Shown here in pieces: positions 1,191-21,977 of a DNA stretch of 30,458 nucleotides. Both the position numbers and the translations under genes were made by a program. Under the pieces are notes generated by a model. That model was not told where the DNA came from and did no database searches. It saw only the letters and a list, made by a program, of their open reading frames with translations. The stretch is from an archaeon (GTDB lineage Archaea > Methanobacteriota_B > Thermococci > Methanofastidiosales > NM3): contig RXIG01000022.1 of NCBI GenBank assembly GCA_004212155.1, positions 1 to 30,458 on the forward strand. The letters are read 5' to 3'. The first letter of the stretch is position 1; every line of letters starts with the position of its first letter.

Positions 1191-2516
1191 CTACACGCCG
1201 ATGTAGTTCTCGACCTCCCAGTCCGAGACGTTGGTCTTGTACTGCTTCCACTCGAGGTTCTTGGCGGCCAGGAAGTGCTGGTAGGCGATGGTGCCCATGG
1301 CCTTGTGGATGACCTCGTCCTTCTCGAGCTCGAAGAGTGCCTCCTGGAGGGTGGACGGCAACATGCCGAGGCCGATGTCGTCGCGCTCCTTCTTGTCGAT
1401 CTTGTAGATGTTCTTGTCGATGGAGTCTCCCGGGTCGATCTTGTTCCTGATGCCGTCGACGCCGGCCGAGAGCATCACGGCGAACGCGAGGTAGGGATTG
1501 CACGACGAGTCGGGTGAGCGAAGCTCTGCGCGGCGCGCCTTTGGCGTCGCGGCGGGGATGCGAACGAGCGACGAGCGATTGCGCTGGCCCCAGATCATAT
1601 AGATTGGCGCCTCATAACCCGGGACCAGGCGCTTGTACGAGTTGACCGTTGGATTGGTGACCGCTGTAAGGGCCTTTGCATGCTTGAGGATGCCTCCGAT
1701 GTAGTAGCGGGCCGTATCCGAGAGCTCCCCCTCGTCGTTGAAGACGTTTTTGCCGTTCTTCGTGTCGTAGATCGACTGGTTGACGTGCATCCCGTTTCCC
1801 GCCTTGCCGGTAAACGGCTTGGGCATGAACGTCGCCACCGTCTCGTACTGGCGCGCGATCATCTTGACGATGAACTTGTAGGTGATGACCTGGTCGGCGA
1901 TCGGCAGCGCGTCGCCGAACTTGAAGTCGATCTCGTGCTGGCCGTTTCCCACCTCGTGGTGCTCCACCTCGAAGTCGATGCCCATGTCCATCATGGCAAG
2001 GGCGCTGTCCTTGCGGATGTCCTCTGCCAGGTCGAGCGGAGAGAAGTCGAAGTAGGAGCCGCGGTCGTGGGGCTCATAGCCCCGCTCCGTCTGTTTGAGC
2101 AGGTAGAACTCGAGCTCGGGGCCGACGTTGAACTGCATGTCCTGGCCGAGCGTGTCCTTCATGTAGTTGATGGAGCGCTTGAGCACGTAGCGCGGGTCGC
2201 CCGCGAACGGCTGCTTACCGTCGTAGGTGTAGACGTCGCATATGATGCGCCCCGTCTTCTTGTTGTGGTTGACCCAGGGAAAGATGCTAAACGTCGAGAG
2301 GTCGGGGCGAAGCATCATGTCAGACTCCTGGATACGGGCGTAGCCCTCGACGGACGAGCCGTCGAACATGGCACCGTCGTCCATGACGTCGCCGAGGTTC
2401 TTCGAGGGTATGGCCATGTTCTTGACAGTGCCGTTGATGTCGACGAACTGCAGGCGTATGAACTTTACGTTTTGTCGTTCTATCGTGTTGAACACTTCTT
2501 CTTCCAATCCATTCAC
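1191..2516 (-). CDS. glnA: Glutamine synthetase type I (alpha-like)
   Basis: FIRLQFVDING, MFDGSSVEGYARIQESDM, HHEVGNGQHEIDF, TFMPKP..GKAGNGMH, NSYKRLVPGYEAP, NRSSLVRIP, ELRSPDSSCNPYL. GTG start at 2516 has AGGTGA upstream and gives 441 aa. Confidence 0.97.
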   Translation of the reverse strand: MNGLEEEVFNTIERQNVKFIRLQFVDINGTVKNMAIPSKNLGDVMDDGAMFDGSSVEGYARIQESDMMLRPDLSTFSIFPWVNHNKKTGRIICDVYTYDGKQPFAGDPRYVLKRSINYMKDTLGQDMQFNVGPELEFYLLKQTERGYEPHDRGSYFDFSPLDLAEDIRKDSALAMMDMGIDFEVEHHEVGNGQHEIDFKFGDALPIADQVITYKFIVKMIARQYETVATFMPKPFTGKAGNGMHVNQSIYDTKNGKNVFNDEGELSDTARYYIGGILKHAKALTAVTNPTVNSYKRLVPGYEAPIYMIWGQRNRSSLVRIPAATPKARRAELRSPDSSCNPYLAFAVMLSAGVDGIRNKIDPGDSIDKNIYKIDKKERDDIGLGMLPSTLQEALFELEKDEVIHKAMGTIAYQHFLAAKNLEWKQYKTNVSDWEVENYIGV

Positions 2517-2747
2517 GTGGTTCACCTGTATACGTTTGAGTTTGCTAAAGTGTATGCATATAAAAAGCTTTTCCTCGACATATGAACAGTATGAAAAATA
2601 AAATATGAATATTCGTTTAAAATTGCACAAAACGTGCATAGCGTTGATGAGTAATGATAAAGATAAAAAGATATAAAAATAGTAAAATATAATACCAATA
2701 CCTTTTATATATTGAAGGCAATGATAAATAACAATCAAGGTGAGCAT

Positions 2748-7914: not shown

Positions 7915-8127
7915 ATGCACGACGATATCGAGAGGATCTATGAAATATTAGAGGAGATACGGTCCGAACTGCGTGAATTGAAGGAGCTTCAAAAGTCGTC
8001 CCAGCACTCGTCGTCCCACGAGGAGGTCGGTCGCAGGATATCCTCGCCGCCCACGAGCAGCAACTACGTGGAGATCCGAGAGAAGAGCAAATGGGACAGC
8101 TCGTCGATCGATGGCCTCATAGAGTGA
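7915..8127 (+). CDS. Small hypothetical protein with N-terminal coiled coil
   Basis: IYEILEEIRSELRELKELQK heptads. TATA about 25 nt upstream. Stop overlaps the nnr ATG (TGATG). Confidence 0.65.
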   Translation: MHDDIERIYEILEEIRSELRELKELQKSSQHSSSHEEVGRRISSPPTSSNYVEIREKSKWDSSSIDGLIE

Positions 8128-9521
8128 TGACCATGGACATGCGTATCATCGACACCAATGCACGCTATTTTGGGCTTCCTCCCCGGATCCTCATGGAAAA
8201 CGCCGGGCGCGGGATCGCCGACTACGTGCGCACCAACTTCGATGCTGGGAAGGTCGCCGTGGTGTGCGGCTCGGGCAACAACGGTGGTGACGGGTTCGTC
8301 ATTGCGCGCCACCTCTCCGAGCATGCGGACGTGCACGTCATCCTTGTGCAGGACCCTGCGAAGATCCGTTCGCAGGAGGCACGGGACAACTACGAGCTCC
8401 TCTTGGCCTCAAACGTGAAGGTAACTGCTTCTCCCACACCCAAGCTCCACTGGAACTACGACCTCATCATCGACGCGATGCTCGGAACGGGCGTCTCGGG
8501 CTCGGTCCGCGAACCCTACGCATCCTACATCTCGATGATCAATCGCCTCGACGTGCCCGTCGTGTCGGTCGACCTGCCATCTGGACACGGCACCGACTTG
8601 CCGATCAAGTCCGACTGCACCATATCGCTGCACCAAGCGAAGGTCGACGGGGCCGTCGTGCTCCCACTCGGGATCCCCTCCCCGCTTTCGCGCCGGTGCG
8701 GGCCGGGCAACGTGAAGTTCCTGCATCGCCGTCACAAGCTTGCCCACAAGCGCCAGGGCGGCGTCGTGGCCGTGGTGGGGGGATCGAACACCTACCACGG
8801 GGCGCCCGCATATGCGAGCCTCACCGCCGCATCGATATGCGACCTCGTCTACGTGCTCTGCCCCGAGCGCGTCGGGGACGCGCTGCGGTCGATGAGCCCG
8901 GACCTCATCATCGAGTCACAGCACGCGCCAACGATAACGAGACCGCTTGTCGACAGCCCGACGCTTTCTGCCGTCAACTGCATCCTGTGCGGTGTCGGTG
9001 CGGGGCGCACGCATGACACGATCGAGGCGCTCCAGCATCTCTGCGAGTGCGCCACCGTGCCGCTCGTCGTCGACGCCGACGGCATCTACGCGCTCAAAGG
9101 AAGGCTCGACCTGCTCGACGAGACCGTCTGCATCACGCCGCATGCCAAGGAGTTCGAACAGCTTTTCGGACAACTGCCCGAAGAGATTGATGAGCGTACA
9201 AAGAGCGTCGAACAGGTGGCAAAGAGGTATGGCTGCACGATCGTGCTCAAGGGTGCCACGGACATCATCTCCAACGGTACTGAGACATGGCACAACATCA
9301 CCGGCAACGAGGGCATGACAACGGGCGGCACGGGTGATGTGCTGGCCGGATGCATCGCCGCGTTCGCCGCGACGAATCCGCTCTTTGAGTCGGCGCTTGG
9401 CGCCACGTTCGCCGTGGGGCGAGCAGGGGACGTGGTGCATGCAAACAAGGAGACCTACTTCACCGCAAGCGACGTCATCGATGCGCTACCCGGCGTGCTC
9501 GCGTTCTGCAGGAAGTATTGA
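8127..9521 (+). CDS. nnr: Bifunctional NAD(P)H-hydrate epimerase/dehydratase (YjeF)
   Basis: LMENAG, CGSGNNGGDG, IIDAMLGTG, VSVDLPSG, then VVDADG, ITPHAKEF, VLKG, MTTGGTGDVLAG. Confidence 0.95.
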   Translation: MTMDMRIIDTNARYFGLPPRILMENAGRGIADYVRTNFDAGKVAVVCGSGNNGGDGFVIARHLSEHADVHVILVQDPAKIRSQEARDNYELLLASNVKVTASPTPKLHWNYDLIIDAMLGTGVSGSVREPYASYISMINRLDVPVVSVDLPSGHGTDLPIKSDCTISLHQAKVDGAVVLPLGIPSPLSRRCGPGNVKFLHRRHKLAHKRQGGVVAVVGGSNTYHGAPAYASLTAASICDLVYVLCPERVGDALRSMSPDLIIESQHAPTITRPLVDSPTLSAVNCILCGVGAGRTHDTIEALQHLCECATVPLVVDADGIYALKGRLDLLDETVCITPHAKEFEQLFGQLPEEIDERTKSVEQVAKRYGCTIVLKGATDIISNGTETWHNITGNEGMTTGGTGDVLAGCIAAFAATNPLFESALGATFAVGRAGDVVHANKETYFTASDVIDALPGVLAFCRKY

Positions 9522-9638
9522 TCCCCCGGATCCATACGGGCAGCCAGTCCGAGACGCATGCCCCCGCACGAAAGGGGAAAAAACCATATATAACACATGG
9601 TTAGAATCATTTTTAAATGCACTATCATACGTGATACC

Positions 9639-10613
9639 ATGACTACGACAGCCTCGAGCCCGGGCAACCTCTTCCTGTGCGGGGAGCACGCAGTCGTCTA
9701 CGGCTATCCCGCCATCATCTGCTCGGTGGAGCAGCGCACCGCGGTCACCGTCACGCGCACCGACAATCCTTCCATCGAGGTCACGTCCGTGGAGTTTGGC
9801 ACCGCGCGCGCCAAGATCGAGGAGCGAGACATCATGGTGACGACCCCGAACGACGAGCTGGCCATATTTCTCGACCTCGTCAGGTCGCTCGGCCTGCCGT
9901 CGGGATTTACCGCATCCATCACCTCAAGCATTCCCGTGCAAAGCGGCATGTCCTCGTCGACCGCCGTTCTTGCAAGCTTCCTCTACGCGCTGAGAAACGA
10001 GTTCTCGCTTCCCATCGAGCCGTCCTCGTTCTACGACCTCCTGCTCCCGCTTCAAAAGAAGGTGCACGGGGGCAAGGCAAGCGGGTCCGAGATCTTCTCC
10101 TCGACGTTGGGCGGCTTCCACCGCATCGAGCGCCGCGACGACGTCGTGGAGTCGCACAAGCTCTGCGAGCACGACCTTGACATCGTCATCGCCGACACGC
10201 GTGTGCATGCGCCGACATCGCTCACGGTGGGCTACCACGTGCCCAGCCTCATAGATCGCAGGCGCGACCTCGTCTTTGAAACGTTCGACAGGATACGCGA
10301 CATCACCAACGAAGCACAAAAAGCGCTCCAAGATGGCGATGCTCAAAAATTGGGAAAGCTTATTAACGAAAATCACCATATGTTACAACGCCTCGGCCTT
10401 TCCCATCCAAAGCTTGACGATTGCGTTGGCGAGGCGCTGGACGCCGGCGCCCTCGGCGCGAAGCTCTCGGGCAGCGGTTGGGGGGGCATCATGTTCGCGC
10501 TCGTCGACGACGAGCACGCCGAGGACGTGAAAGCGGCACTCGAGCGCACAAGGGCGACCGTGATAGCCACCTCCATCGGAGGAGAGGGCACGAGGGTGGA
10601 GGAACATATATGA
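9639..10613 (+). CDS. mvk: Mevalonate kinase-like GHMP kinase (non-canonical active site)
   Basis: GEHAVVYG.PAI, PVQSGMSSS (motif II), HGGKASG, LG.SHPKLD, GALGAKLSGSGWGG (motif III). First gene of the modified MVA cluster. Confidence 0.85.
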   Translation: MTTTASSPGNLFLCGEHAVVYGYPAIICSVEQRTAVTVTRTDNPSIEVTSVEFGTARAKIEERDIMVTTPNDELAIFLDLVRSLGLPSGFTASITSSIPVQSGMSSSTAVLASFLYALRNEFSLPIEPSSFYDLLLPLQKKVHGGKASGSEIFSSTLGGFHRIERRDDVVESHKLCEHDLDIVIADTRVHAPTSLTVGYHVPSLIDRRRDLVFETFDRIRDITNEAQKALQDGDAQKLGKLINENHHMLQRLGLSHPKLDDCVGEALDAGALGAKLSGSGWGGIMFALVDDEHAEDVKAALERTRATVIATSIGGEGTRVEEHI

Positions 10614-11164
10614 ACATCGTAGTAGGCATCACCGGCGCTTCGGGCTACAGGCTGGCACACGAGGTCGTCAGGGGGCTTGGCGAGCATGAGGTCAACGTGC
10701 ACCTCATCACCACGAAGCCTGCCGAGACGATAGCGGCCATCGAGGGCGAGAATCCGGAGAGGACGCGGGAGCTCGCATACAGGCATTATCGGGAGGACGA
10801 GCTCGAGGCGTGCATTTCCTCGTCGACCTGCCCCATGGACGGCATGGTCATCGTTCCATGCTCGCTCAAGTCGCTCTCGGCCATCACCCACGGCTACTGC
10901 AACAACCTCATCATACGCTGCGCCGAGAACATGCTCAGGATGAAAAAGCCGCTTGTCGTCATGCCCCGCGAGACTCCCCTTTCCGCACAGGCACTTGACA
11001 ACATGGCGCAGCTCGTGCGCGACGGCGCCATCATGCTGCCGCCGATCATCGAGTACTACACGCGTCCGCACACCATCGAGGACCTCAATCACTTCTTTGT
11101 CGGCAAGGTTCTCGATACGTTCGCGATCAAGCACAACTATCCCAAGTGGAGAGGTATCAGATGA
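10610..11164 (+). CDS. ubiX: Flavin prenyltransferase
   Basis: IVVGITGASG, DGMVIVPCS, NNLIIR.A, PRETPL. ATGA overlap with mvk. Confidence 0.93.
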   Translation: MNIVVGITGASGYRLAHEVVRGLGEHEVNVHLITTKPAETIAAIEGENPERTRELAYRHYREDELEACISSSTCPMDGMVIVPCSLKSLSAITHGYCNNLIIRCAENMLRMKKPLVVMPRETPLSAQALDNMAQLVRDGAIMLPPIIEYYTRPHTIEDLNHFFVGKVLDTFAIKHNYPKWRGIR

Positions 11165-12474
11165 CGGACCTTCGCTCGCTCTTGTCGAGGCTTGATCGAG
11201 AAGGCCGCCTCACGCGCATACGCAAGGACGTCGACCCGTTCCTCACGGCCGCATCCATCGCATCGGCGCTCGACGGGCGGGCCGTGCTCTTCGAGAACGT
11301 GCGCGGACACGAGATGCCGGTCGTCGCCGGCATCGGGAGCCACAGGGACCACTACGCATCGGCACTGGGCGTTGGTCGCGACGACCTCCTCGGGCATATC
11401 GCTGCAGCGTTTGACTCGAACGGGTATCCGCCCGAGATCGACGACGCTCCGTGCAAGGAGCGCATCGATGCCGCCCCGTCCCTCGACCGATTGCCCATAC
11501 TGACGCACTTCAAGGGTGACGGGGGACCCTACATCACGTCGGGCGTCGCCGTGGTGCGCGACCCAGAGCTTGGGCAAAACCTGAGCTTCCACCGCCTCAT
11601 GAAGATCGGCAAAAACAGGCTCGTCGCCCGCATCGTCGAGGGGCGCGGGACCCACACGGCGCTTGTCAAATCGGGGGGGGAGCTCGACATCGCGATCTGC
11701 ATCGGCGCACCGCTTCACGTGCTGCTCGCCGCCGCATGCTCGCCGCCCCCGGGCCACGACGAACTGCGCATCGCCTCGGCGCTTGCACCGACGCCGGTGG
11801 TGAGGGCGGAGGGTTCCGACCTGCTCGTCCCGGCGCAGACGGAGATCGTGCTCGAGGGGCGCATCACCAGCGAACTGGCCGACGAGGGCCCGTTTGTCGA
11901 CCTCACCCAGACGCCTGATGTCACGCGGCGCCAGCATGTGGTCGAGATCGACACGATGACGACCCGCAACGATCCGTATTACCATGCGCTCATGCCCGCG
12001 TCCGACGAGCACAAGCTGCTCATGGGCATGCCGCGCGAACCGAGCATATTCCATGCTGTCGGCCGTGCCGCCGACGTGAGAAACGTCGTTGTCACCCCGG
12101 GCGGCTGCTCGTGGCTCCATGCCGTGGTGCAGATTGCGCCAAAGCGCGAGGGCGACGCGATGCGCGCCGCCAAGGGTGCGTTTGAGGGGCACGGTTCGCT
12201 CAAGCACTGCGTCGTCGTCGACACCGACGTCGACGTCTACGACCCTGCGGACATCGAATGGGCGCTTGCCACACGCGTGCAGGCGGGACGCGACGTCAAG
12301 GTGTTCAAGGACCGGCCTGGCTCCTCGCTCGACCCTTCGGCCTTCCATGAGGAGGGGAAGAAATCCCGCACCGACAAGGTCGCGATCGACGCCACCGTCC
12401 CCCGCGGCGCCGATGACGGCGCGTATCGCAAGGTGCGCTATGCGCCCGTCGACCTCGACGACTACCTGGAGTGA
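11161..12474 (+). CDS. ubiD: UbiD-family prFMN decarboxylase, probable trans-anhydromevalonate 5-phosphate decarboxylase
   Basis: LPILTHF.GDGGPYITSG, NLSFHRL, EIVLEG, EGPFVD, EHKLLMGMPREP, GGCSWLHAVV, VVVDTDVD, EWALATRVQ. Context with AcnX and mvk. Confidence 0.92.
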   Translation: MTDLRSLLSRLDREGRLTRIRKDVDPFLTAASIASALDGRAVLFENVRGHEMPVVAGIGSHRDHYASALGVGRDDLLGHIAAAFDSNGYPPEIDDAPCKERIDAAPSLDRLPILTHFKGDGGPYITSGVAVVRDPELGQNLSFHRLMKIGKNRLVARIVEGRGTHTALVKSGGELDIAICIGAPLHVLLAAACSPPPGHDELRIASALAPTPVVRAEGSDLLVPAQTEIVLEGRITSELADEGPFVDLTQTPDVTRRQHVVEIDTMTTRNDPYYHALMPASDEHKLLMGMPREPSIFHAVGRAADVRNVVVTPGGCSWLHAVVQIAPKREGDAMRAAKGAFEGHGSLKHCVVVDTDVDVYDPADIEWALATRVQAGRDVKVFKDRPGSSLDPSAFHEEGKKSRTDKVAIDATVPRGADDGAYRKVRYAPVDLDDYLE

Positions 12475-12477
12475 GCC

Positions 12478-13683
12478 ATGATGGAACTGACACCCGACGA
12501 ACAGGCGACCTACGACGGCGAGCGCGGACCCGTCCAGCAAAAGGCGATGGAGATCCTCGTTGCGCTTGGAAAGATCTACGGCGCACGATCGCTTGTCCCC
12601 GTGACGAGCGTCCAGATAGCGGGTGTCAGCTACAAGAATCTGGGAATGCCCGGCAAGGAGTTCATACGATGGTGGGTCGACCAGGGCGCCCGCGTGCGCA
12701 GGCTCGCCACACTCAATCCCGCAGGCATCGACCGCAATCGCTGGAAGGAGCTTGGGTTTCCCGAGGAGTTCTCGACACACCAGAAGGAGATCATCGACGA
12801 CTACGCCATGCTCGGCATAGAACCGACATGCACATGCACGCCGTATGAGATCGGCAATCTCCCGAAGTTTGGCGACCACATCGCATGGAGCGAGTCGTCT
12901 GCCGTCTCGTTCGCAAACACCTACATCGGTGCGCGCACGAATCGGGAGGGGGGACCCTCGGCGCTTGCAGCGGCGATCGTCGGCAAGACCCCCTGCCACG
13001 GCTACCACCTCGACGAGCAGCGCGCGCCTGGCGTAGGCTATGACGTCACAGCAACGATCAGCAGCGAGGCCGACGCCGGCGCCCTGGGCATCGTGGCCGG
13101 GCGCGATGCGGGCTCGCGCGTCCCCTTCTTCTCAGGCCTTCCCCCGTTCGAGACGGGATGGTACAAGCAGCTTGGCGCCGCCATGGCGGCGGCGGGCTCG
13201 GTCGCGCTCTACCACGTCGACGGCCAGACGCCGGAGGCCCGGGCGAAGACGGTAGGCCCCCCTGACGAGACGAGGCCCGTCGAGAGCCTCGAGCCCGCCT
13301 ACGAGCTGCTCAACAGCGGGGGGGAGCGCATCGACTTCGTCTCGCTCGGATGCCCCCACGCGTCGCTTGAGGAGATCCACCGCATCGCGGAGATGCTTCG
13401 GGGAAGGAATGTCAGCGTGCCCCTCTGGATCACGACATCCGTTGCCACCGCGGCACAGGCCGACGAGTACGGATACGCGGCAGTGATCGAGGGCGCGGGA
13501 GCGCGCGTTGTGTGCGACACGTGCATGGTCGTCTCGCCCATCGAGACGTTCGGCTACGAGACCGTCGCCACCAACTCCGCGAAGGGATGCTACTACCTGC
13601 AGTCGTGGTGCGGCGTCGAGACGAGATACGGCGACGTCCGCTCATGCATCGAGGCTGCCTGCACGGGACGGTGGCCGCAATGA
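12478..13683 (+). CDS. Aconitase X catalytic subunit, probable phosphomevalonate dehydratase large subunit (DUF521)
   Basis: GVSYKNLG, TLNPAG, TCTCTPY, AWSESSAV, GARTNREGGPSALAAA, GCPHAS, CDTCMVVSP, TNSAK. Confidence 0.93.
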   Translation: MMELTPDEQATYDGERGPVQQKAMEILVALGKIYGARSLVPVTSVQIAGVSYKNLGMPGKEFIRWWVDQGARVRRLATLNPAGIDRNRWKELGFPEEFSTHQKEIIDDYAMLGIEPTCTCTPYEIGNLPKFGDHIAWSESSAVSFANTYIGARTNREGGPSALAAAIVGKTPCHGYHLDEQRAPGVGYDVTATISSEADAGALGIVAGRDAGSRVPFFSGLPPFETGWYKQLGAAMAAAGSVALYHVDGQTPEARAKTVGPPDETRPVESLEPAYELLNSGGERIDFVSLGCPHASLEEIHRIAEMLRGRNVSVPLWITTSVATAAQADEYGYAAVIEGAGARVVCDTCMVVSPIETFGYETVATNSAKGCYYLQSWCGVETRYGDVRSCIEAACTGRWPQ

Positions 13684-14075
13684 AGGCGCGCATCATCAAG
13701 GCGGGGCGCGCACGGGGACGCGCACTCGTGAGCGCCATGGCACTCTCGTTCCTCGGCGGCATCGACCCGGAGACGGGAACGGTCATCGCCCGCGACTCGG
13801 ACATCGCCGGGGAGTCGATCGCAGGGCGCATCCTCGTCTTTCCCCGCGGAAAGGGATCGACCGTCGGATCATACATATTGCTCCGCCTGAAGAAAAACGG
13901 CGTCGCGCCGCTTGCCATCGTCAACGAGCTCTCCGAACCCATCGTTGCGGTGGGCGCCATCATCGCGGACATACCCATGGTCGACAAGGTCGATATCTCC
14001 CAGATCGCCACGGGCGACGAGGTCTCCATCGACGGGGAAAACATTGAAGTACGCACAGACGTAAAGGGAGCGTAG
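13680..14075 (+). CDS. Aconitase X swivel subunit, probable phosphomevalonate dehydratase small subunit (DUF126)
   Basis: LSFLGGIDPETG, ILVFPRGKGSTVGSY, EPIVAVGAIIADIPMVD. ATGA overlap with the large subunit. Confidence 0.93.
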   Translation: MKARIIKAGRARGRALVSAMALSFLGGIDPETGTVIARDSDIAGESIAGRILVFPRGKGSTVGSYILLRLKKNGVAPLAIVNELSEPIVAVGAIIADIPMVDKVDISQIATGDEVSIDGENIEVRTDVKGA

Positions 14076-14081
14076 ATAGAA

Positions 14082-14582
14082 ATGTGGAAGGATATCGAAC
14101 AGCACTTCAAATCGTCGCCGAAACGGCGGGAGGTGGCATCGCTCCTGCTCATGCTCGGCCTGTCATGCAACGACGAGCTCAAGGTCTTCTGCCAGGACAT
14201 CGAGGTGCCTGTGAAAAAGATCGCCGACACGCTCGGCATCGACCGGCGCGTCATCACCGAGACGGTGCGCGACATCATGGCCGACGAGAAGTTGCGGGGC
14301 GTCTTCTCCGAGCTCAAGCCCCGCGCGTTCCTGCGCGACGCGGCAAGCGCGCTCGACCTCGGCGTCGTCGAGATCGAGGCGGTGCCCGAGACCGTCGGCA
14401 TCGTTGCGGGGGTGTCGTCGATCATCGCCTCCGAGGGCCTTTCGATCCGCCAGGTCGTGGCCGACGATCCTGACCTCTTCCCAAGCCCGAAGCTCACCAT
14501 CGTCACGGACAGGAAGATGCCGCCCTACCTGCTCGAGAAGATACTCAAGATCCACGGCGTGCGGAAGGTGTCGATCTATTAA
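14082..14582 (+). CDS. COG2150-type predicted regulator of amino acid metabolism (HTH + ACT domain)
   Basis: IADTLGIDRRVI HTH-like segment and ACT-like GIVAGVSSIIASEGLSIRQVVADDP...PKLTIVT. Confidence 0.85.
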   Translation: MWKDIEQHFKSSPKRREVASLLLMLGLSCNDELKVFCQDIEVPVKKIADTLGIDRRVITETVRDIMADEKLRGVFSELKPRAFLRDAASALDLGVVEIEAVPETVGIVAGVSSIIASEGLSIRQVVADDPDLFPSPKLTIVTDRKMPPYLLEKILKIHGVRKVSIY

Positions 14583-14610
14583 CGGCGACCAAATCGGACC
14601 GCGCAGGGGC

Positions 14611-15297
14611 ATGATGTCGCTTCCGCTCGGCAATCCGCTCGTCTTCTTCCTCATCATACTCATCCCGCTCCTGCTTGTCGTCCTCTTCATCAATGTTGTC
14701 GAGGCGGCGTTCCAGCGCATCGGCCTCTCACCGATGATGGCGTCGGTGCTCGTCTTCGCGACGATCCTCGGCAGCCTTGTCAACATCCCGCTGAGGAAGG
14801 TAACGTGCGTGCGCACAGTGGAGCGGCCCATGGCCTCGGGATTCTACCACTTCATCTATCCCCAGTCGACGCAGGGCTACGTGGAGCAGTGCGACACGAC
14901 GATAGCGATCAACGTCGGCGGTGCCATCGTGCCGCTGCTTTTGTGCATCTACATGTTCGCGCGCTATCCCGAATACCTCTTCCCGTGGTGTGCCGTCACG
15001 ATACCGATCATGGTGGGGATTTGCTACAAGATATCGCGAGTGGTGCCAAACGTCGGCATCGTGATGCCCACGTTCGTGCCGCCGCTCATGTCGGCCGGGC
15101 TCGCTCTGCTCTTTGCCGGCGATGCGTTCCCGGTCGCGCTCTCTTTCGTGACAGGGGTGCTTGGCGTCATCATCGGCGCCGACCTGCTCAATCTCAACAA
15201 GATATCGCAGACCACCGCGCGCACCATCTCGATCGGCGGCGCCGGAACGTTTGACGGCATCTTCCTTACAGGCATAATAAGCGTATTTCTAGTATGA
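14611..15297 (+). CDS. DUF1614 family membrane protein
   Basis: GSLVNIP, IAINVGGAIVP, GVIIGADLLNL, SIGGAGTFDGIFLTG; multiple TM helices. Confidence 0.88.
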   Translation: MMSLPLGNPLVFFLIILIPLLLVVLFINVVEAAFQRIGLSPMMASVLVFATILGSLVNIPLRKVTCVRTVERPMASGFYHFIYPQSTQGYVEQCDTTIAINVGGAIVPLLLCIYMFARYPEYLFPWCAVTIPIMVGICYKISRVVPNVGIVMPTFVPPLMSAGLALLFAGDAFPVALSFVTGVLGVIIGADLLNLNKISQTTARTISIGGAGTFDGIFLTGIISVFLV

Positions 15298-16842: not shown

Positions 16843-16950
16843 TGCCACAAATCAGGGACGCGGTATTTAACTTTACCGTCGCTTCAGGCGACAATGCATA
16901 TACGGTGGTGCCCACCAATACCTTTTAAACTGACGATGAGAGTGAGCACC

Positions 16951-18897
16951 ATGGATTTCTTCCCCTACGAGCACCTGCGCCCAAAGCAGGGGGAGTTCAT
17001 ATCGACCGTCTCCGAGGCGGTGCACCTCGGAAAGAATGCCGTTCTCGAGGCCCCGACGGGATTCGGCAAGACCGCATGCGTCCTGGCAGCCGTGCTCCCG
17101 GCCGCGCGCGAGCTCAACAAGAAGGTGGTATACCTCTGCCGCACGCACAAGCAGATGGACCGCGTCATCGAGGAGCTCAAGGCGATAGCGCGAAAGGAAC
17201 CCGTCACGGCTCTCTCGCTTCGGGGCAGGAAGGAGATGTGCCTCTCGCCGCTCGTGCTCAATCATACGCAGGACTCGAGCTCATCGATGTACGTATGCAG
17301 GCTCCTGCGCAAGATGAAGCGCTGCACCCACTACAACGCGACCAAGGAAAAGGAGGAGCGCGCCTACGAGCTCGAGGTTCTCTTCTCCCGGGGGCCCGTC
17401 TACAGCCACGAGATCAAGGAGGTGTGCGAACGCGAGGCGATGTGCCCCTACGAGGTCGCCAAGGCGGTGATGAAAAACACGGAGGTCATCGCATGCTCGT
17501 ACATGTACCTCTTCCACCCCGACATCCGGGAGGGATTCCTCGAGGGGCTTGGCGTCACGCTCGAGGACGTCATCGTCGTCATAGACGAGGCGCACAACCT
17601 GCCCGACCTCGCAATCGACCTCGGCTCGTCCCGCCTCTCGCTCAACGCGCTCAAAAACGCCTCGCGCGAGGCGTCCGAGTACAACGAGCGCGACATCGCG
17701 GCGCTCTTCGAGATGACGTACCAGGCGATGCTTGCGCTCGACTCGAAGTACAAGCTCGAGATGGGCGACGAGGCGCGCATCATGCCCGCCGAGCTGCTCG
17801 GCTACTTCTTCGGCAAGCGCCACACCCCGTTTCTCAAGGAGAAGAACCTCACCGAGCTCGAGGAGTTCCTCGGCTATGTGGTCAAGCAGGGCGAAGAGGT
17901 GCAAAAGGAGATGCTCAAGAAGGGCAAGCCTCCGCGCTCCTACATCCACAGCTGCGGCGTTTTCCTGAGCAACTGGCTCGCCATGCGGGGCAGGAAGGAC
18001 TTTTGCTACCTGCTCGTGAGCTACCAGACCAAGGCGGAGACACAAAGCGTCCGCCTCGAGATCGTCGACCTCGACCCACGAAACATCACTACGCAGGTCA
18101 CCTCGGCCTGCCACTCCGCCATCGCCATGTCGGGCACGCTATCGCCGCTTGTCGCCTACGCAGAGACGATAGGCCTCACGACCTACGAGGCGGGGCAGTA
18201 TCCCTCCCCGTTCCAGCGCTCGAACATGCTCGTGCTGGCGGCGCGCGGCGTGACGACGAAGGGGTCGTATCGCGGGCTCGAGATGTACCGCAAGCTCGCC
18301 TCCAAGGCTGCCGAGGTCGCCAACAACACGCCCAAGAACGTCGGCATCTTCGCACCGTCGTATGAGGTGCTCGAGGGGCTGCTGGCCGGTGGATTCAGAT
18401 ATATCGTCGAAAAGCCGCTCTTCGTCGAGTCGCGCAAGCTCTCGTCTGCCGAAAACGACGAGCTCGTTCGCACGTTCAAGGACCACGAAAGCCACGGCGG
18501 CGCCGTGCTGCTCGGCGTGCTCGCGGGGCGAAACGCCGAAGGGCAGGACTATCCCGGCGACGAGATGAACTGCGTGATACTGCTCGGGATACCATATGCG
18601 CGCCCGACGGCGCGCGTCAAGGCGCAGATCGACTACTACACCGAGGCGTTTCCCTCCAAGGGGCGCTATTACGGATACTATCTCCCCGCGCACCGCAAGC
18701 TCAATCAAGGGGCGGGACGTGCGCACCGCCGCCTCGAGGACAAGGCCGCCATCGTCTTTCTTGACTACCGCGTGCTCCAGCCGTTCGTGAAAAAGGACGT
18801 TTCCGGATGGATCGCCCGCTCGCTTCGGCCCATCGACGACAAGCCGGGGCTCCTGGCACGCTACATCGAGACGTTCTTCTACGGCGTACCGAAGTGA
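16951..18897 (+). CDS. xpd: XPD/Rad3-family Fe-S SF2 DNA helicase
   Basis: FPYEHLRPKQ Q-motif, APTGFGKT, four Fe-S Cys (EMCL, YVC, KRC, MCPYE), IDEAHNL, MSGTLSP, EGQDYPG, QGAGRAHR. Confidence 0.92.
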   Translation: MDFFPYEHLRPKQGEFISTVSEAVHLGKNAVLEAPTGFGKTACVLAAVLPAARELNKKVVYLCRTHKQMDRVIEELKAIARKEPVTALSLRGRKEMCLSPLVLNHTQDSSSSMYVCRLLRKMKRCTHYNATKEKEERAYELEVLFSRGPVYSHEIKEVCEREAMCPYEVAKAVMKNTEVIACSYMYLFHPDIREGFLEGLGVTLEDVIVVIDEAHNLPDLAIDLGSSRLSLNALKNASREASEYNERDIAALFEMTYQAMLALDSKYKLEMGDEARIMPAELLGYFFGKRHTPFLKEKNLTELEEFLGYVVKQGEEVQKEMLKKGKPPRSYIHSCGVFLSNWLAMRGRKDFCYLLVSYQTKAETQSVRLEIVDLDPRNITTQVTSACHSAIAMSGTLSPLVAYAETIGLTTYEAGQYPSPFQRSNMLVLAARGVTTKGSYRGLEMYRKLASKAAEVANNTPKNVGIFAPSYEVLEGLLAGGFRYIVEKPLFVESRKLSSAENDELVRTFKDHESHGGAVLLGVLAGRNAEGQDYPGDEMNCVILLGIPYARPTARVKAQIDYYTEAFPSKGRYYGYYLPAHRKLNQGAGRAHRRLEDKAAIVFLDYRVLQPFVKKDVSGWIARSLRPIDDKPGLLARYIETFFYGVPK

Positions 18898-20331: not shown

Positions 20332-21057
20332 CTACACCCCTGAGACGATCTCTCGCACCGCGTCATGGTCGTCAGCGATGCGGGCAAAAGAGAACGCGTC
20401 GCAGTACTCGAGGATGGCCTGGGCGCTTGCGGTGTCACGCACCGAGTTGTTGCCTATAAGGAAGAGGTCATCCGGGATCTCCCGAAAGACACTGAAGTCG
20501 GGCGCGTCCTTTCCCTTGAGCATCGCATCGACGTGGAGCACGTCGCAGCAGCCCTCCACCGCGTTGGCGATGGCAAGCTCCGGTACGATGTTTCCGCGAA
20601 ACTTCAGGACCGTCGTGACGCCAAGCTCGTTTTTGATCTGCCAGAGGATCTCCTGGAGCTTCGAGAAGTCGTAGAGCAGCGCCTGTCCGGCGCCGATGGA
20701 GGTCATCTCGTCCTGGCGGCAGTGGGCGTCGATCTCCACGATGCCTCCCGCCTCGGCGATGACTGCGGCCGCGTCAAGGTAGCCGCCGACGGTGGCAGAA
20801 CGGATGTTGACGGCGACAAGCGCCTCCGATTCGCGGGCGATTGCCACCTGCTCCCGGATGTAGTCCTCATGGTTGTGAACGAAAAATTCACTGCGTCCGC
20901 GCTCGATCATCTTCTTGGTCTGGGACTTGGCAACGTCGTCGACGCTAAGGCCGCCGATGGTCACCATGCCGAGCCCGAGGGCGCCGAGGTCGCGGCAGTA
21001 CGCTCCATCGTTTCGGCCCGCGTATGCTGCCAGCACTGAGGGGTGTCGCAATCTCAA
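20332..21057 (-). CDS. MJ0144-family dihydrouridine synthase-like TIM-barrel protein
   Basis: VLAAYAG.NDG, ERGRSEF, VAVNIRS, EIDAHCRQ.EM...GAGQALL, LHVDAM, IGNNSVRD, SFAR. Confidence 0.82.
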   Translation of the reverse strand: MRLRHPSVLAAYAGRNDGAYCRDLGALGLGMVTIGGLSVDDVAKSQTKKMIERGRSEFFVHNHEDYIREQVAIARESEALVAVNIRSATVGGYLDAAAVIAEAGGIVEIDAHCRQDEMTSIGAGQALLYDFSKLQEILWQIKNELGVTTVLKFRGNIVPELAIANAVEGCCDVLHVDAMLKGKDAPDFSVFREIPDDLFLIGNNSVRDTASAQAILEYCDAFSFARIADDHDAVREIVSGV

Positions 21058-21977
21058 TCAATCACCAAATAGCGTTTGATATCCTCTCCAAGCGCCCTGC
21101 TCGTATATAAATCTTTCATGAATATGTCGGTCGCATGCACCCCGAGGCCCATCTCCTCGAGTTCGGGCACAAGCGCCGCATCGGATGTGTCGATGATGAT
21201 GTCATCAAGGATGGAGTGGTAGATCTCGGCGACGCCTACGGCGGAGAGCGTGTATCCAAGACCGTGCATGAGCGTGGTCGCAGGACCGCTGAACGCGCCC
21301 GACCCCACAAGCGGGCTGACAGCGACGGTGCGCTTCTCCTTGCACAGCTCGTAGATCTCCGAGACGGACAGTATGGGAAGGATCGACGTCACGGGATTCG
21401 AGGGTCCGATGAGGACGACATCGGACGCCTCGATGCAAGCGCGCAGCTCCCCGGTGATCGTCGCCGTGTCGCTCCCGTTGAACGCGACGGCATCGACGAT
21501 GTGCCTGCCCCTGTCGCGCACCCAGAACTCGTGGAACGTAAGGGGTCCTTCGTCGGTAGATACGATGGTCTGCACGGGGTCGTCGCTCATGGGAAAGACG
21601 CGCTCCTCGATGTTCCAGCGCTCGCACTGCTCACGTGTGACCTGGGAAAGCGTTGCACCTTCCGAGAGCCTCACGGTACGATACAGCTTCGTGGCGCGGT
21701 CCTTGTCCCCCATGCGCAGGAGCTCGTTGTAGCCGAACGCGAGCATGGCGTCATACGTGTGGAACGTATCGTCTGCCATTCCGTACCACTTCTGCTGGTC
21801 GATAACGCCTGCAAGGGCATAGATGACAGAATCGAGGTCGGGCGACATGCGAGAACCGCTCACGAGCGTGTCCTCTGCGGTGTTTGCCACCACACATATG
21901 GAATCGCGTGCAAGCACCCTCTGGAGGCCCATGAGGAGCTTGGGCGTGCCCGTTCCCCCGGAGAGAACAGTGATCAT
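21054..21977 (-). CDS. cofD: 2-phospho-L-lactate transferase (coenzyme F420 biosynthesis)
   Basis: MITVLSGGTGTPKLL, NTAED, SPDLDSV.Y, GDKDRAT, PMSDDPV, FHEFWV, IGPSNPVTSI.PIL, VAVSP..G..AFSGPA. Confidence 0.93.
   Translation of the reverse strand: MITVLSGGTGTPKLLMGLQRVLARDSICVVANTAEDTLVSGSRMSPDLDSVIYALAGVIDQQKWYGMADDTFHTYDAMLAFGYNELLRMGDKDRATKLYRTVRLSEGATLSQVTREQCERWNIEERVFPMSDDPVQTIVSTDEGPLTFHEFWVRDRGRHIVDAVAFNGSDTATITGELRACIEASDVVLIGPSNPVTSILPILSVSEIYELCKEKRTVAVSPLVGSGAFSGPATTLMHGLGYTLSAVGVAEIYHSILDDIIIDTSDAALVPELEEMGLGVHATDIFMKDLYTSRALGEDIKRYLVID

Follow-up and report, generated by a model that had tools for sequence, protein, structure and literature searches.

Can a mevalonate kinase (MVK) work without the lysine and the aspartate on which its catalysis is thought to depend? 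Textbook and structural work on this enzyme takes the Lys/Asp pair to be invariant and essential (PMC6283576, cited throughout from the part of the paper available to us), and a gene that lacks both residues stands in the stretch of archaeal DNA analysed here. This stretch, which we call the window, covers 30,458 nucleotides (positions 1 to 30,458 of contig RXIG01000022.1, assembly GCA_004212155.1) from a member of the Methanofastidiosales, lineage NM3. An earlier note on the window, made from its letters alone, had read the gene as an MVK with Lys replaced by Asn10 and Asp by Glu151, and had suggested an alternative active site rather than a decaying gene. Our best reading is that the gene belongs to a deep MVK subfamily found mostly in DPANN archaea, with an active-site class undescribed so far. 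We predict that it encodes a functional mevalonate 5-kinase and give this activity a probability of roughly three in four.

Active-site residues of the variant kinase

The start codon of the gene agrees with that of its relatives and with the gene call of the sequence collection (P0002, 324 aa). Motifs I, II and III, the HGGKASGSE loop and both unusual codons are present as the earlier note gave them (Table 1). In a phmmer search against all PDB chains, MVKs rank first, with M. mazei 6mde at an E-value of 6.7e-31. Alignment with the solved enzymes (M. mazei 6mde/4hac, MKbur 8teb and L. major 2hfs) places Asn10 at the PGK lysine and Glu151 at the aspartate of S-x-x-D, confirming both replacements at the sites of the catalytic pair. 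All four printed PDB alignments have Lys and Asp at these sites, and none of the 31 PDB matches is closer to the protein than the canonical MVKs are.

Both halves of the double change therefore stand, but the change is wider than that: nine signature positions differ, and the earlier note had missed the replacement of a conserved glutamate by Gln139. This glutamate position is presumably that of rat Glu193, a ligand of Mg-ATP. Its assignment to M. mazei Glu127 was made by counting in the phmmer alignment against the numbering of PMC6283576. According to the alignment, the other member of the Mg-ATP ligand pair, the motif II serine, is retained as Ser107; elsewhere in the same phosphate-binding loop, Ser105 takes the place of an invariant Gly and Thr108 that of Ala, so that the loop gains two hydroxyls. 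The HGGKASGSE loop corresponds to the canonical H-G-x-P-S-G-x-D with one additional residue, and it keeps the serine of the mevalonate site as Ser148. Of the two catalytic residues of canonical MVKs the protein has neither: the motif I lysine is Asn10 here and is found in 0/130 clade members, and the catalytic aspartate is Glu151, which keeps the carboxylate on a longer side chain.

Sequencing error, which the earlier note had named as a possible source of the pattern, finds no support. A 97%-identical locus from another metagenome-assembled genome (MAG) has the same motifs, and the Asn10 and Glu151 codons are covered by contigs from runs of three studies with no difference at either codon among those listed (35 less-supported differences stand outside the list, and one of the runs, X1, may be the source sample). 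At position 10253 the window has A and the contigs of all four runs have C, a synonymous difference (Ile205, ATA to ATC). Contigs from an RNA-library run, X11, also lie over parts of the MVK gene; contigs cannot show transcription.

Family membership and fold

The protein scores above the Pfam cut-offs for both halves of a GHMP kinase (PF00288, 41.7 bits; PF08544, 69.8 bits) and above that of the NCBIfam MVK equivalog (TIGR00549, 188.7 bits; cut-off 163.05). With 33 clade members as its basis, AlphaFold2 gave a confident model (pLDDT 96.1, pTM 0.93). When this model was compared with the PDB using Foldseek, the twelve best matches were all MVK structures, headed by M. mazei MVK 6mde/6mdf (6mde: TM 0.87/0.93, 31% identity). 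Two other identities were rejected, namely homoserine kinase (TIGR00191, 34.1 bits against 168.25, with a separate thrB in the genome) and phosphomevalonate kinase (PMK; TIGR01220, 41.7 bits against a cut-off of 165.7). Databases already label proteins of this clade 'mevalonate kinase', by homology. By sequence, fold and context, then, the protein is an MVK homologue, and it is one that lacks the catalytic residues of the canonical enzyme.

Conservation of the variant residues across relatives

To describe the relatives we use the residues at positions 10, 139 and 151 as a triad. Among 121 sequences (the query and its 120 best matches, as 90%-identity clusters) the triad is N-Q-E in 106 and S-Q-E in 6, and 5 more are N-terminally truncated with Q-E; x-Q-E thus occurs in 117, and K-E-D in just the four weakest. 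A broader sample, taken at 50% identity and made up of the query and 150 representatives, has Glu at position 151 in 33 sequences and Asp in 110, nearly all of the latter with Lys at position 10, and contains a third class of 8.

A full-length alignment of 252 sequences, comprising 130 variants, 112 canonical MVKs and 10 with other patterns, gives the sharpest separation. Position 10 in the variants is Asn (118), Ser (7), Gln (3), Thr (1) or a gap (1) and never Lys, against Lys in 112/112 canonical sequences. Position 139 is Gln in 129/130 variants, against Glu in 95/112 and Asp in 8/112 of the canonical group; position 151 is Glu in 130/130 against Asp in 112/112. The full signature consists of N10, F12, S105, T108, Q139, an inserted G144, A147, E151 and S154, where canonical enzymes have K10, I12, G105 (112/112), A108, E139, no residue corresponding to G144, P147, D151 and V, I, T or A at 154, and all nine positions fall within three active-site motifs. 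Both types share Ser107, Ser148, Thr193, Lys275 and the motif III glycines. Position 146 is Lys or Arg in 109/130 variants (84%) and 19/112 canonical sequences, and Trp281 of motif III, in 92/130 variants, is common without being universal. Since they are common to 130 relatives, the replacements are far beyond chance. A signature kept over so many sequences, in a gene that is intact and translationally coupled, bears out the proposal of an alternative active site that has co-evolved, as opposed to a decaying one.

The third class (P0139, P0145, P0146, P0157, P0166, P0193, P0201 and P0244) is MVK-like and has Glu or Gln at the motif I lysine site. Its counterpart of the canonical GxPSG-xD is G[RK]AS[KR]-[TIV]G, with Gly in the Asp column; in most members Lys or Arg replaces the Gly that stands two positions ahead of the Asp. 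All 4 of the 4 members tested pass the TIGR00549 cut-off. Judging from these residues, the active site looks like a charge-swapped one. Two N-Q-E kinases have unexpected placements: P0113 has a eukaryotic transcriptome (eukprot) as its listed source, and L038 is in a MAG labelled Patescibacteria, where PMK and MDD genes adjoin it. These placements could be due to contamination, misbinning or transfer.

Whether the variants arose once was addressed with three tree analyses, all with the trait columns removed. In the FastTree tree, a branch with a support of 62 has the 26 full-length variant representatives all on the same side. Two quick IQ-TREE searches used 68 rows, namely the 26 variants, the 8 third-class sequences and a random draw of 34 from the 109 Asp-type sequences, and both break the variants into three groups. 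One of these is a long-branched trio (P0135, P0136 and P0220), which the mixture-model tree attaches to a canonical row that is itself long. Under LG+G4, a tree uniting the variants exceeds the one from the free quick search by 22.46 lnL (p-AU 0.76). We do not regard the three-way split as evidence for several origins. A single origin is consistent with the data and weakly supported. The check proposed in the earlier note, whether Asn and Glu co-occur as a clade among homologues, was borne out for the co-occurrence, with Asn10 in 118 of the 130 Glu151 variants, and less firmly for the single clade.

A natural exchange of kinases in related genomes

The host genome (1.49 Mb in 28 contigs, 89.84% complete) contains one match above the TIGR00549 cut-off, and this is the variant gene. 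A second canonical MVK, for which the earlier note had proposed a search, was not found above the cut-off in this genome. The other two GHMP matches were considered as a second MVK and rejected: one is a homoserine kinase gene (thrB) beside thrC and an aspartokinase gene on contig 10, and the other is a sugar-kinase-like gene beside a HAD phosphatase gene. The latter kinase, at G000:C17:7737-8567 (L002:1474-2442; G000 is the host genome), has 322 aa and an RVDLSGG-type N-terminus, and on the MVK model it reaches 102.5 bits, short of the cut-off; a gene for a HAD-like phosphatase overlaps its 3' end, and relatives have similar sub-threshold matches. Its product is probably a sugar or sugar-phosphate kinase. 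The host genome also has genes for HMG-CoA reductase (HMGR) and isopentenyl-phosphate kinase (IPK). The MDD family was not found in this genome, which is ~90% complete.

Comparison within the order reveals what has happened at this locus. Of 31 genomes, G000 included, 27 have one MVK match above the cut-off and none has more. The match is N-Q-E in four (G000 and G001, genus g1; G003 and G005, genus g2) and K-x-D in 23, among them G002 from the same genus and G004 and G006 from the same family. In G002 (locus L093) the gene order NnrDE-MVK-UbiX-UbiD-AcnXL-AcnXS-orf14082 is the order of the window (8091-14582), and the neighbours are 62-78% identical to the window's; its MVK is canonical K-E-D and 28% identical. 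G004 (L094) and G006 (L095) have the same pattern, with the order of UbiD and UbiX swapped. The flanking genes of the window are far closer to those of these relatives than to those of DPANN loci (34-60% identity). Just the kinase has been exchanged and its neighbours have been retained: one MVK type has displaced the other in situ. The canonical MVK of this euryarchaeal lineage would have been the one displaced, most likely via horizontal transfer of the variant. Because one type displaced the other in place, there is a strong argument that the two have equal function. The euryarchaeon retains the rest of the pathway and has an enzyme of DPANN type as its sole MVK, and this argues that the enzyme works.

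Gene context and expected product

The earlier note had described the open reading frame as full length, translationally coupled and at the head of a mevalonate operon, and the window agrees on each count: the frame is intact, the MVK stop codon (TGA, 10611-10613) and the start codon of the gene that follows (ATG, 10610-10612) overlap as ATGA, and genes for UbiX, UbiD and aconitase X (AcnX) follow. The order is MVK, UbiX, UbiD, AcnX large and AcnX small, tightly packed (Table 1). In the archaeal-type mevalonate route, phosphomevalonate dehydratase (AcnX) is followed by anhydromevalonate-phosphate decarboxylase (UbiD). The UbiD-family protein is a candidate for this decarboxylase, a substrate suggested by context and by general knowledge of the pathway. 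The route described here agrees with the available part of PMC11052028.

Table 1. Features of the variant MVK gene and of other genes in the window.
Feature	Coordinates	Strand	Details
A/T-rich TTTTTAAA box	9611..9618	+	~21-28 nt 5' of the MVK ATG; read from the sequence
Variant mevalonate kinase	9639..10613	+	GHMP_kinases_N and GHMP_kinases_C; 324 aa, frame without stops
Motif I, SPGNLFLCGEH		+	Residues 7-17; read from the translation
Asn10	9666..9668	+	Codon AAC at the motif I Lys position (M. mazei Lys9; human/rat Lys13)
Motif II, SGMSSST	9942..9962	+	Phosphate-binding loop, residues 102-108; canonical GLGSSA
Gln139	10053..10055	+	Codon CAA at a conserved Glu position (M. mazei Glu127); phmmer alignment
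Loop HGGKASGSE	10065..10091	+	Residues 143-151, ending in Glu151 at the catalytic Asp position
Glu151	10089..10091	+	Codon GAG (M. mazei Asp138; human Asp204)
Motif III, GSGWGG	10470..10487	+	Glycine-rich loop, residues 278-283
UbiX-family flavin prenyltransferase	10610..11164	+	TIGR00421, 175.4 bits
UbiD-family decarboxylase	11146..12474	+	TIGR00148, 321 bits
Aconitase-X large subunit	12478..13683	+	Candidate phosphomevalonate dehydratase; PF04412, 484 bits
Aconitase-X swivel (small) subunit	13680..14075	+	PF01989, 115.8 bits
orf14082	14082..14582	+	166 aa, without Pfam match; 3' of the AcnX small subunit
DUF1614 membrane-protein gene	14404..15297	+	Next after orf14082
XPD-type helicase	16894..18897	+	Housekeeping
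CofD (F420 biosynthesis)	21054..21977	-	Housekeeping
Glutamine synthetase	1191..2747	-	Housekeeping

Upstream of the MVK gene lies a gene for an NAD(P)HX epimerase/dehydratase (NnrDE). The A/T-rich gap of 117 nt in front of the MVK gene contains the TTTTTAAA box, a putative archaeal TATA box from which a leaderless or short-leader operon transcript would start. The small open reading frame orf14082 is kept in the same place in relatives, with 67-78% identity.

A similar setting is found around the variant kinase in other organisms. We examined 52 variant loci from named MAGs; the scan pattern contained PGN, so that Asn10 in this set reflects ascertainment and is no independent evidence. At least one further mevalonate-pathway gene lies within the fetched flanks in 43/52, UbiD or AcnX is nearby in 27/52, and PMK or MDD in 7/52. 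The loci are labelled mostly Iainarchaeum, Aenigmatarchaeota, Nanohalarchaeota, Undinarchaeota and Micrarchaeota, and a few are labelled Bathyarchaeota, Borrarchaeum, Methanosarcinales or Patescibacteria. Close to the variant MVK, at a distance of one or two genes, loci of the classical route have a PMK of their own (243-249 bits), and the contig of an Undinarchaeota MAG reads MDD, PMK, variant MVK, IDI2. At L054 a tandem MVK-like paralogue (L054:6984-7922, + strand) stands directly 5' of the N-Q-E MVK (L054:7989-9038). It has a divergent N-terminus and matches TIGR00549 over model positions 73-276 with 119.9 bits, below the cut-off; a PMK gene is two genes downstream.

The AcnX/UbiD and the PMK/MDD routes both consume mevalonate 5-phosphate. 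Because the two partner routes share this entry compound, mevalonate 5-phosphate is the expected product of the variant kinase. The accessible part of PMC11052028 likewise gives it as the entry to both lower routes.

A proposed active site and its alternatives

We propose that the variant catalyses ATP + (R)-mevalonate -> mevalonate 5-phosphate, a product that would feed the AcnX and UbiD/UbiX route encoded downstream, in which UbiX makes the cofactor for UbiD, with IPK encoded elsewhere. The Lys/Glu/Asp constellation would have been replaced as a set by Asn/Gln/Glu, together with the additional residue in the base loop and the G to S and A to T changes in the phosphate loop. Glu151, on its longer loop, could do for the C5 hydroxyl what Asp does, as general base or proton relay. 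A neutral Asn/Gln pair would stand for the charged Lys+/Glu- pair and leave the net charge of the site unchanged, with Asn10 and Gln139 making hydrogen bonds instead of ionic contacts and Gln139 and Ser107 still holding Mg-ATP. Lys or Arg at position 146, where present, may provide a positive charge near the gamma-phosphate. The change from Asp to Glu is chemically conservative, and the protein is probably MVK-like in function, with an active-site constellation that is undescribed.

Several points weigh against a working mevalonate 5-kinase of this kind. The aspartate of MVK is the presumed base, and the lysine, 'strictly conserved among MKs', forms a salt bridge with it and contacts the gamma-phosphate; in the human enzyme Asp to Ala or Asp to Asn lowers kcat more than 40,000-fold, and Lys to Met costs ~56-fold (PMC6283576). 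Full activity of an Asn/Gln/Glu site is therefore not self-evident. The roles suggested above for Glu151, Gln139 and Lys146 come from an alignment, and Lys/Arg146 is missing in 21/130 members. The stricter NCBIfam model for MVK, NF003036, gives 179.8 bits, far below its cut-off of 403. Neither the full-text literature searches nor the 31 PDB matches contained enzymatic data on any clade member. The monophyly of the variants is weakly supported, as described above, and a host genome that is ~90% complete strictly leaves room for a second MVK.

These points lend themselves to other explanations. With three charged catalytic residues altered, the phosphate loop changed at an otherwise invariant Gly and the Mg-ligand Glu turned into a neutral Gln, the enzyme could carry out the same reaction and form the same product by a different mechanism or use of cofactors, be it substrate-assisted 'direct phosphorylation' with no base from the protein, which has been proposed for homoserine kinase, another metal or nucleotide, or a loss of feedback inhibition. 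A base-free mechanism has in fact been considered in the literature on GHMP kinases, MVK included (PMC6283576). Yet Glu151 is invariant (130/130), which argues that a carboxylate is still required, and with the ATP-binding motifs II and III retained there is no sequence sign of another phosphoryl donor; we consider a departure of this kind unlikely. The differing catalytic residues, the low NF003036 score and a mevalonate-contacting His of GEH that is Y, F or P in 21/130 members could instead mean that the name MVK is an artefact of homology and that the protein acts on another substrate or position, as a mevalonate 3-kinase, another hydroxy-acid kinase or a phosphomevalonate kinase. Against this, the variant fills the canonical MVK slot in an operon syntenic with that of a same-genus genome, the four genomes that carry it have no other MVK above the cut-off, and the partner routes of either kind need mevalonate 5-phosphate; a separate PMK co-occurs where the classical route is present, and the MDD/M3K family was not found in the host genome. 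A different substrate was among the options raised in the earlier note, and of those it is the least likely; we regard it as very improbable.

The replacement of residues that the literature holds to be essential (PMC6283576) would also be expected of a catalytically dead or decaying relic, or of a sequencing or assembly artefact. Such an origin seems to us hardly credible in view of the strong purifying conservation of the signature over 130 sequences, the intact and translationally coupled frame, the confident structure model and the same codons in independent MAGs and contigs, and the gene is moreover the sole MVK of a genome that retains HMGR, IPK and the lower pathway. A mevalonate 5-kinase with an altered active site remains the explanation that we prefer.

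Relation to known systems and significance

Canonical MVK (EC 2.7.1.36; M. mazei 6mde/6mdf/4hac, rat/human 1kvk and 2r3v) shares with the variant the GHMP fold and motif architecture, the GEH His, Ser107, Ser148, Thr193 and Lys275, and its operon position in a sister genome. It differs, in M. mazei numbering, by Lys9->Asn10, Glu127->Gln139 and Asp138->Glu151, and the variant further has the one-residue insertion in the base loop (HGG), G to S and A to T in motif II, and I to F at position 12. Homoserine kinase, itself a GHMP kinase, functions although it lacks the Lys/Asp pair, and it is a precedent for other catalytic solutions in the superfamily (PMC6283576). Unlike homoserine kinase, whose Asp site lacks an ionisable residue, the variant clade keeps an invariant Glu151; the host has its separate thrB, and the variant scores weakly on thrB models (34-43 bits).

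Among archaea, alternative mevalonate kinases include those of the Thermoplasma type, mevalonate 3-kinase (M3K), which is an MDD homologue, and mevalonate-3-phosphate 5-kinase. The present locus differs from this route in that the MDD family was not found in the host and the operon encodes the AcnX/UbiD route. MVKs of DPANN archaea group apart from the remaining archaeal MVKs (Hoshino & Gaucher 2018, PMC6107057; Microorganisms 2024, PMC11052028; both available to us in part), and this 'DPANN MVK' cluster is probably the same clade as the variant. The available parts of the two papers make no mention of altered catalytic residues or of in-situ displacement in a euryarchaeal family outside DPANN. 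A characterised MVK with Asn and Glu, which the earlier note had named as evidence that would tell against its reading, was found neither in the literature searched nor in the printed PDB alignments. More broadly, the full-text searches turned up no paper that describes or assays an Asn/Gln/Glu MVK; most papers in subscription journals were outside their scope, and earlier work could exist.

It is tempting to speculate that N-Q-E enzymes form a mechanistically distinct and portable 'plug-in' class of MVK, which serves archaeal as well as classical lower pathways in DPANN and has, in at least one euryarchaeal family, taken over from the canonical enzyme. We put this forward tentatively and think it rather doubtful as a whole. 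If it were true, measurable shifts would be expected in the dependence on metal or nucleotide or in the pH optimum, or else insensitivity to feedback by isoprenyl diphosphates. Feedback-resistant or otherwise unusual MVKs are wanted for isoprenoid engineering. For the family, a large natural clade that replaces Lys, Asp and the Mg-ligand Glu together is a ready-made test of the roles of these residues in GHMP kinases, and for the organisms, the variant bears on whether DPANN archaea with mevalonate-pathway genes make their own isoprenoid lipids.

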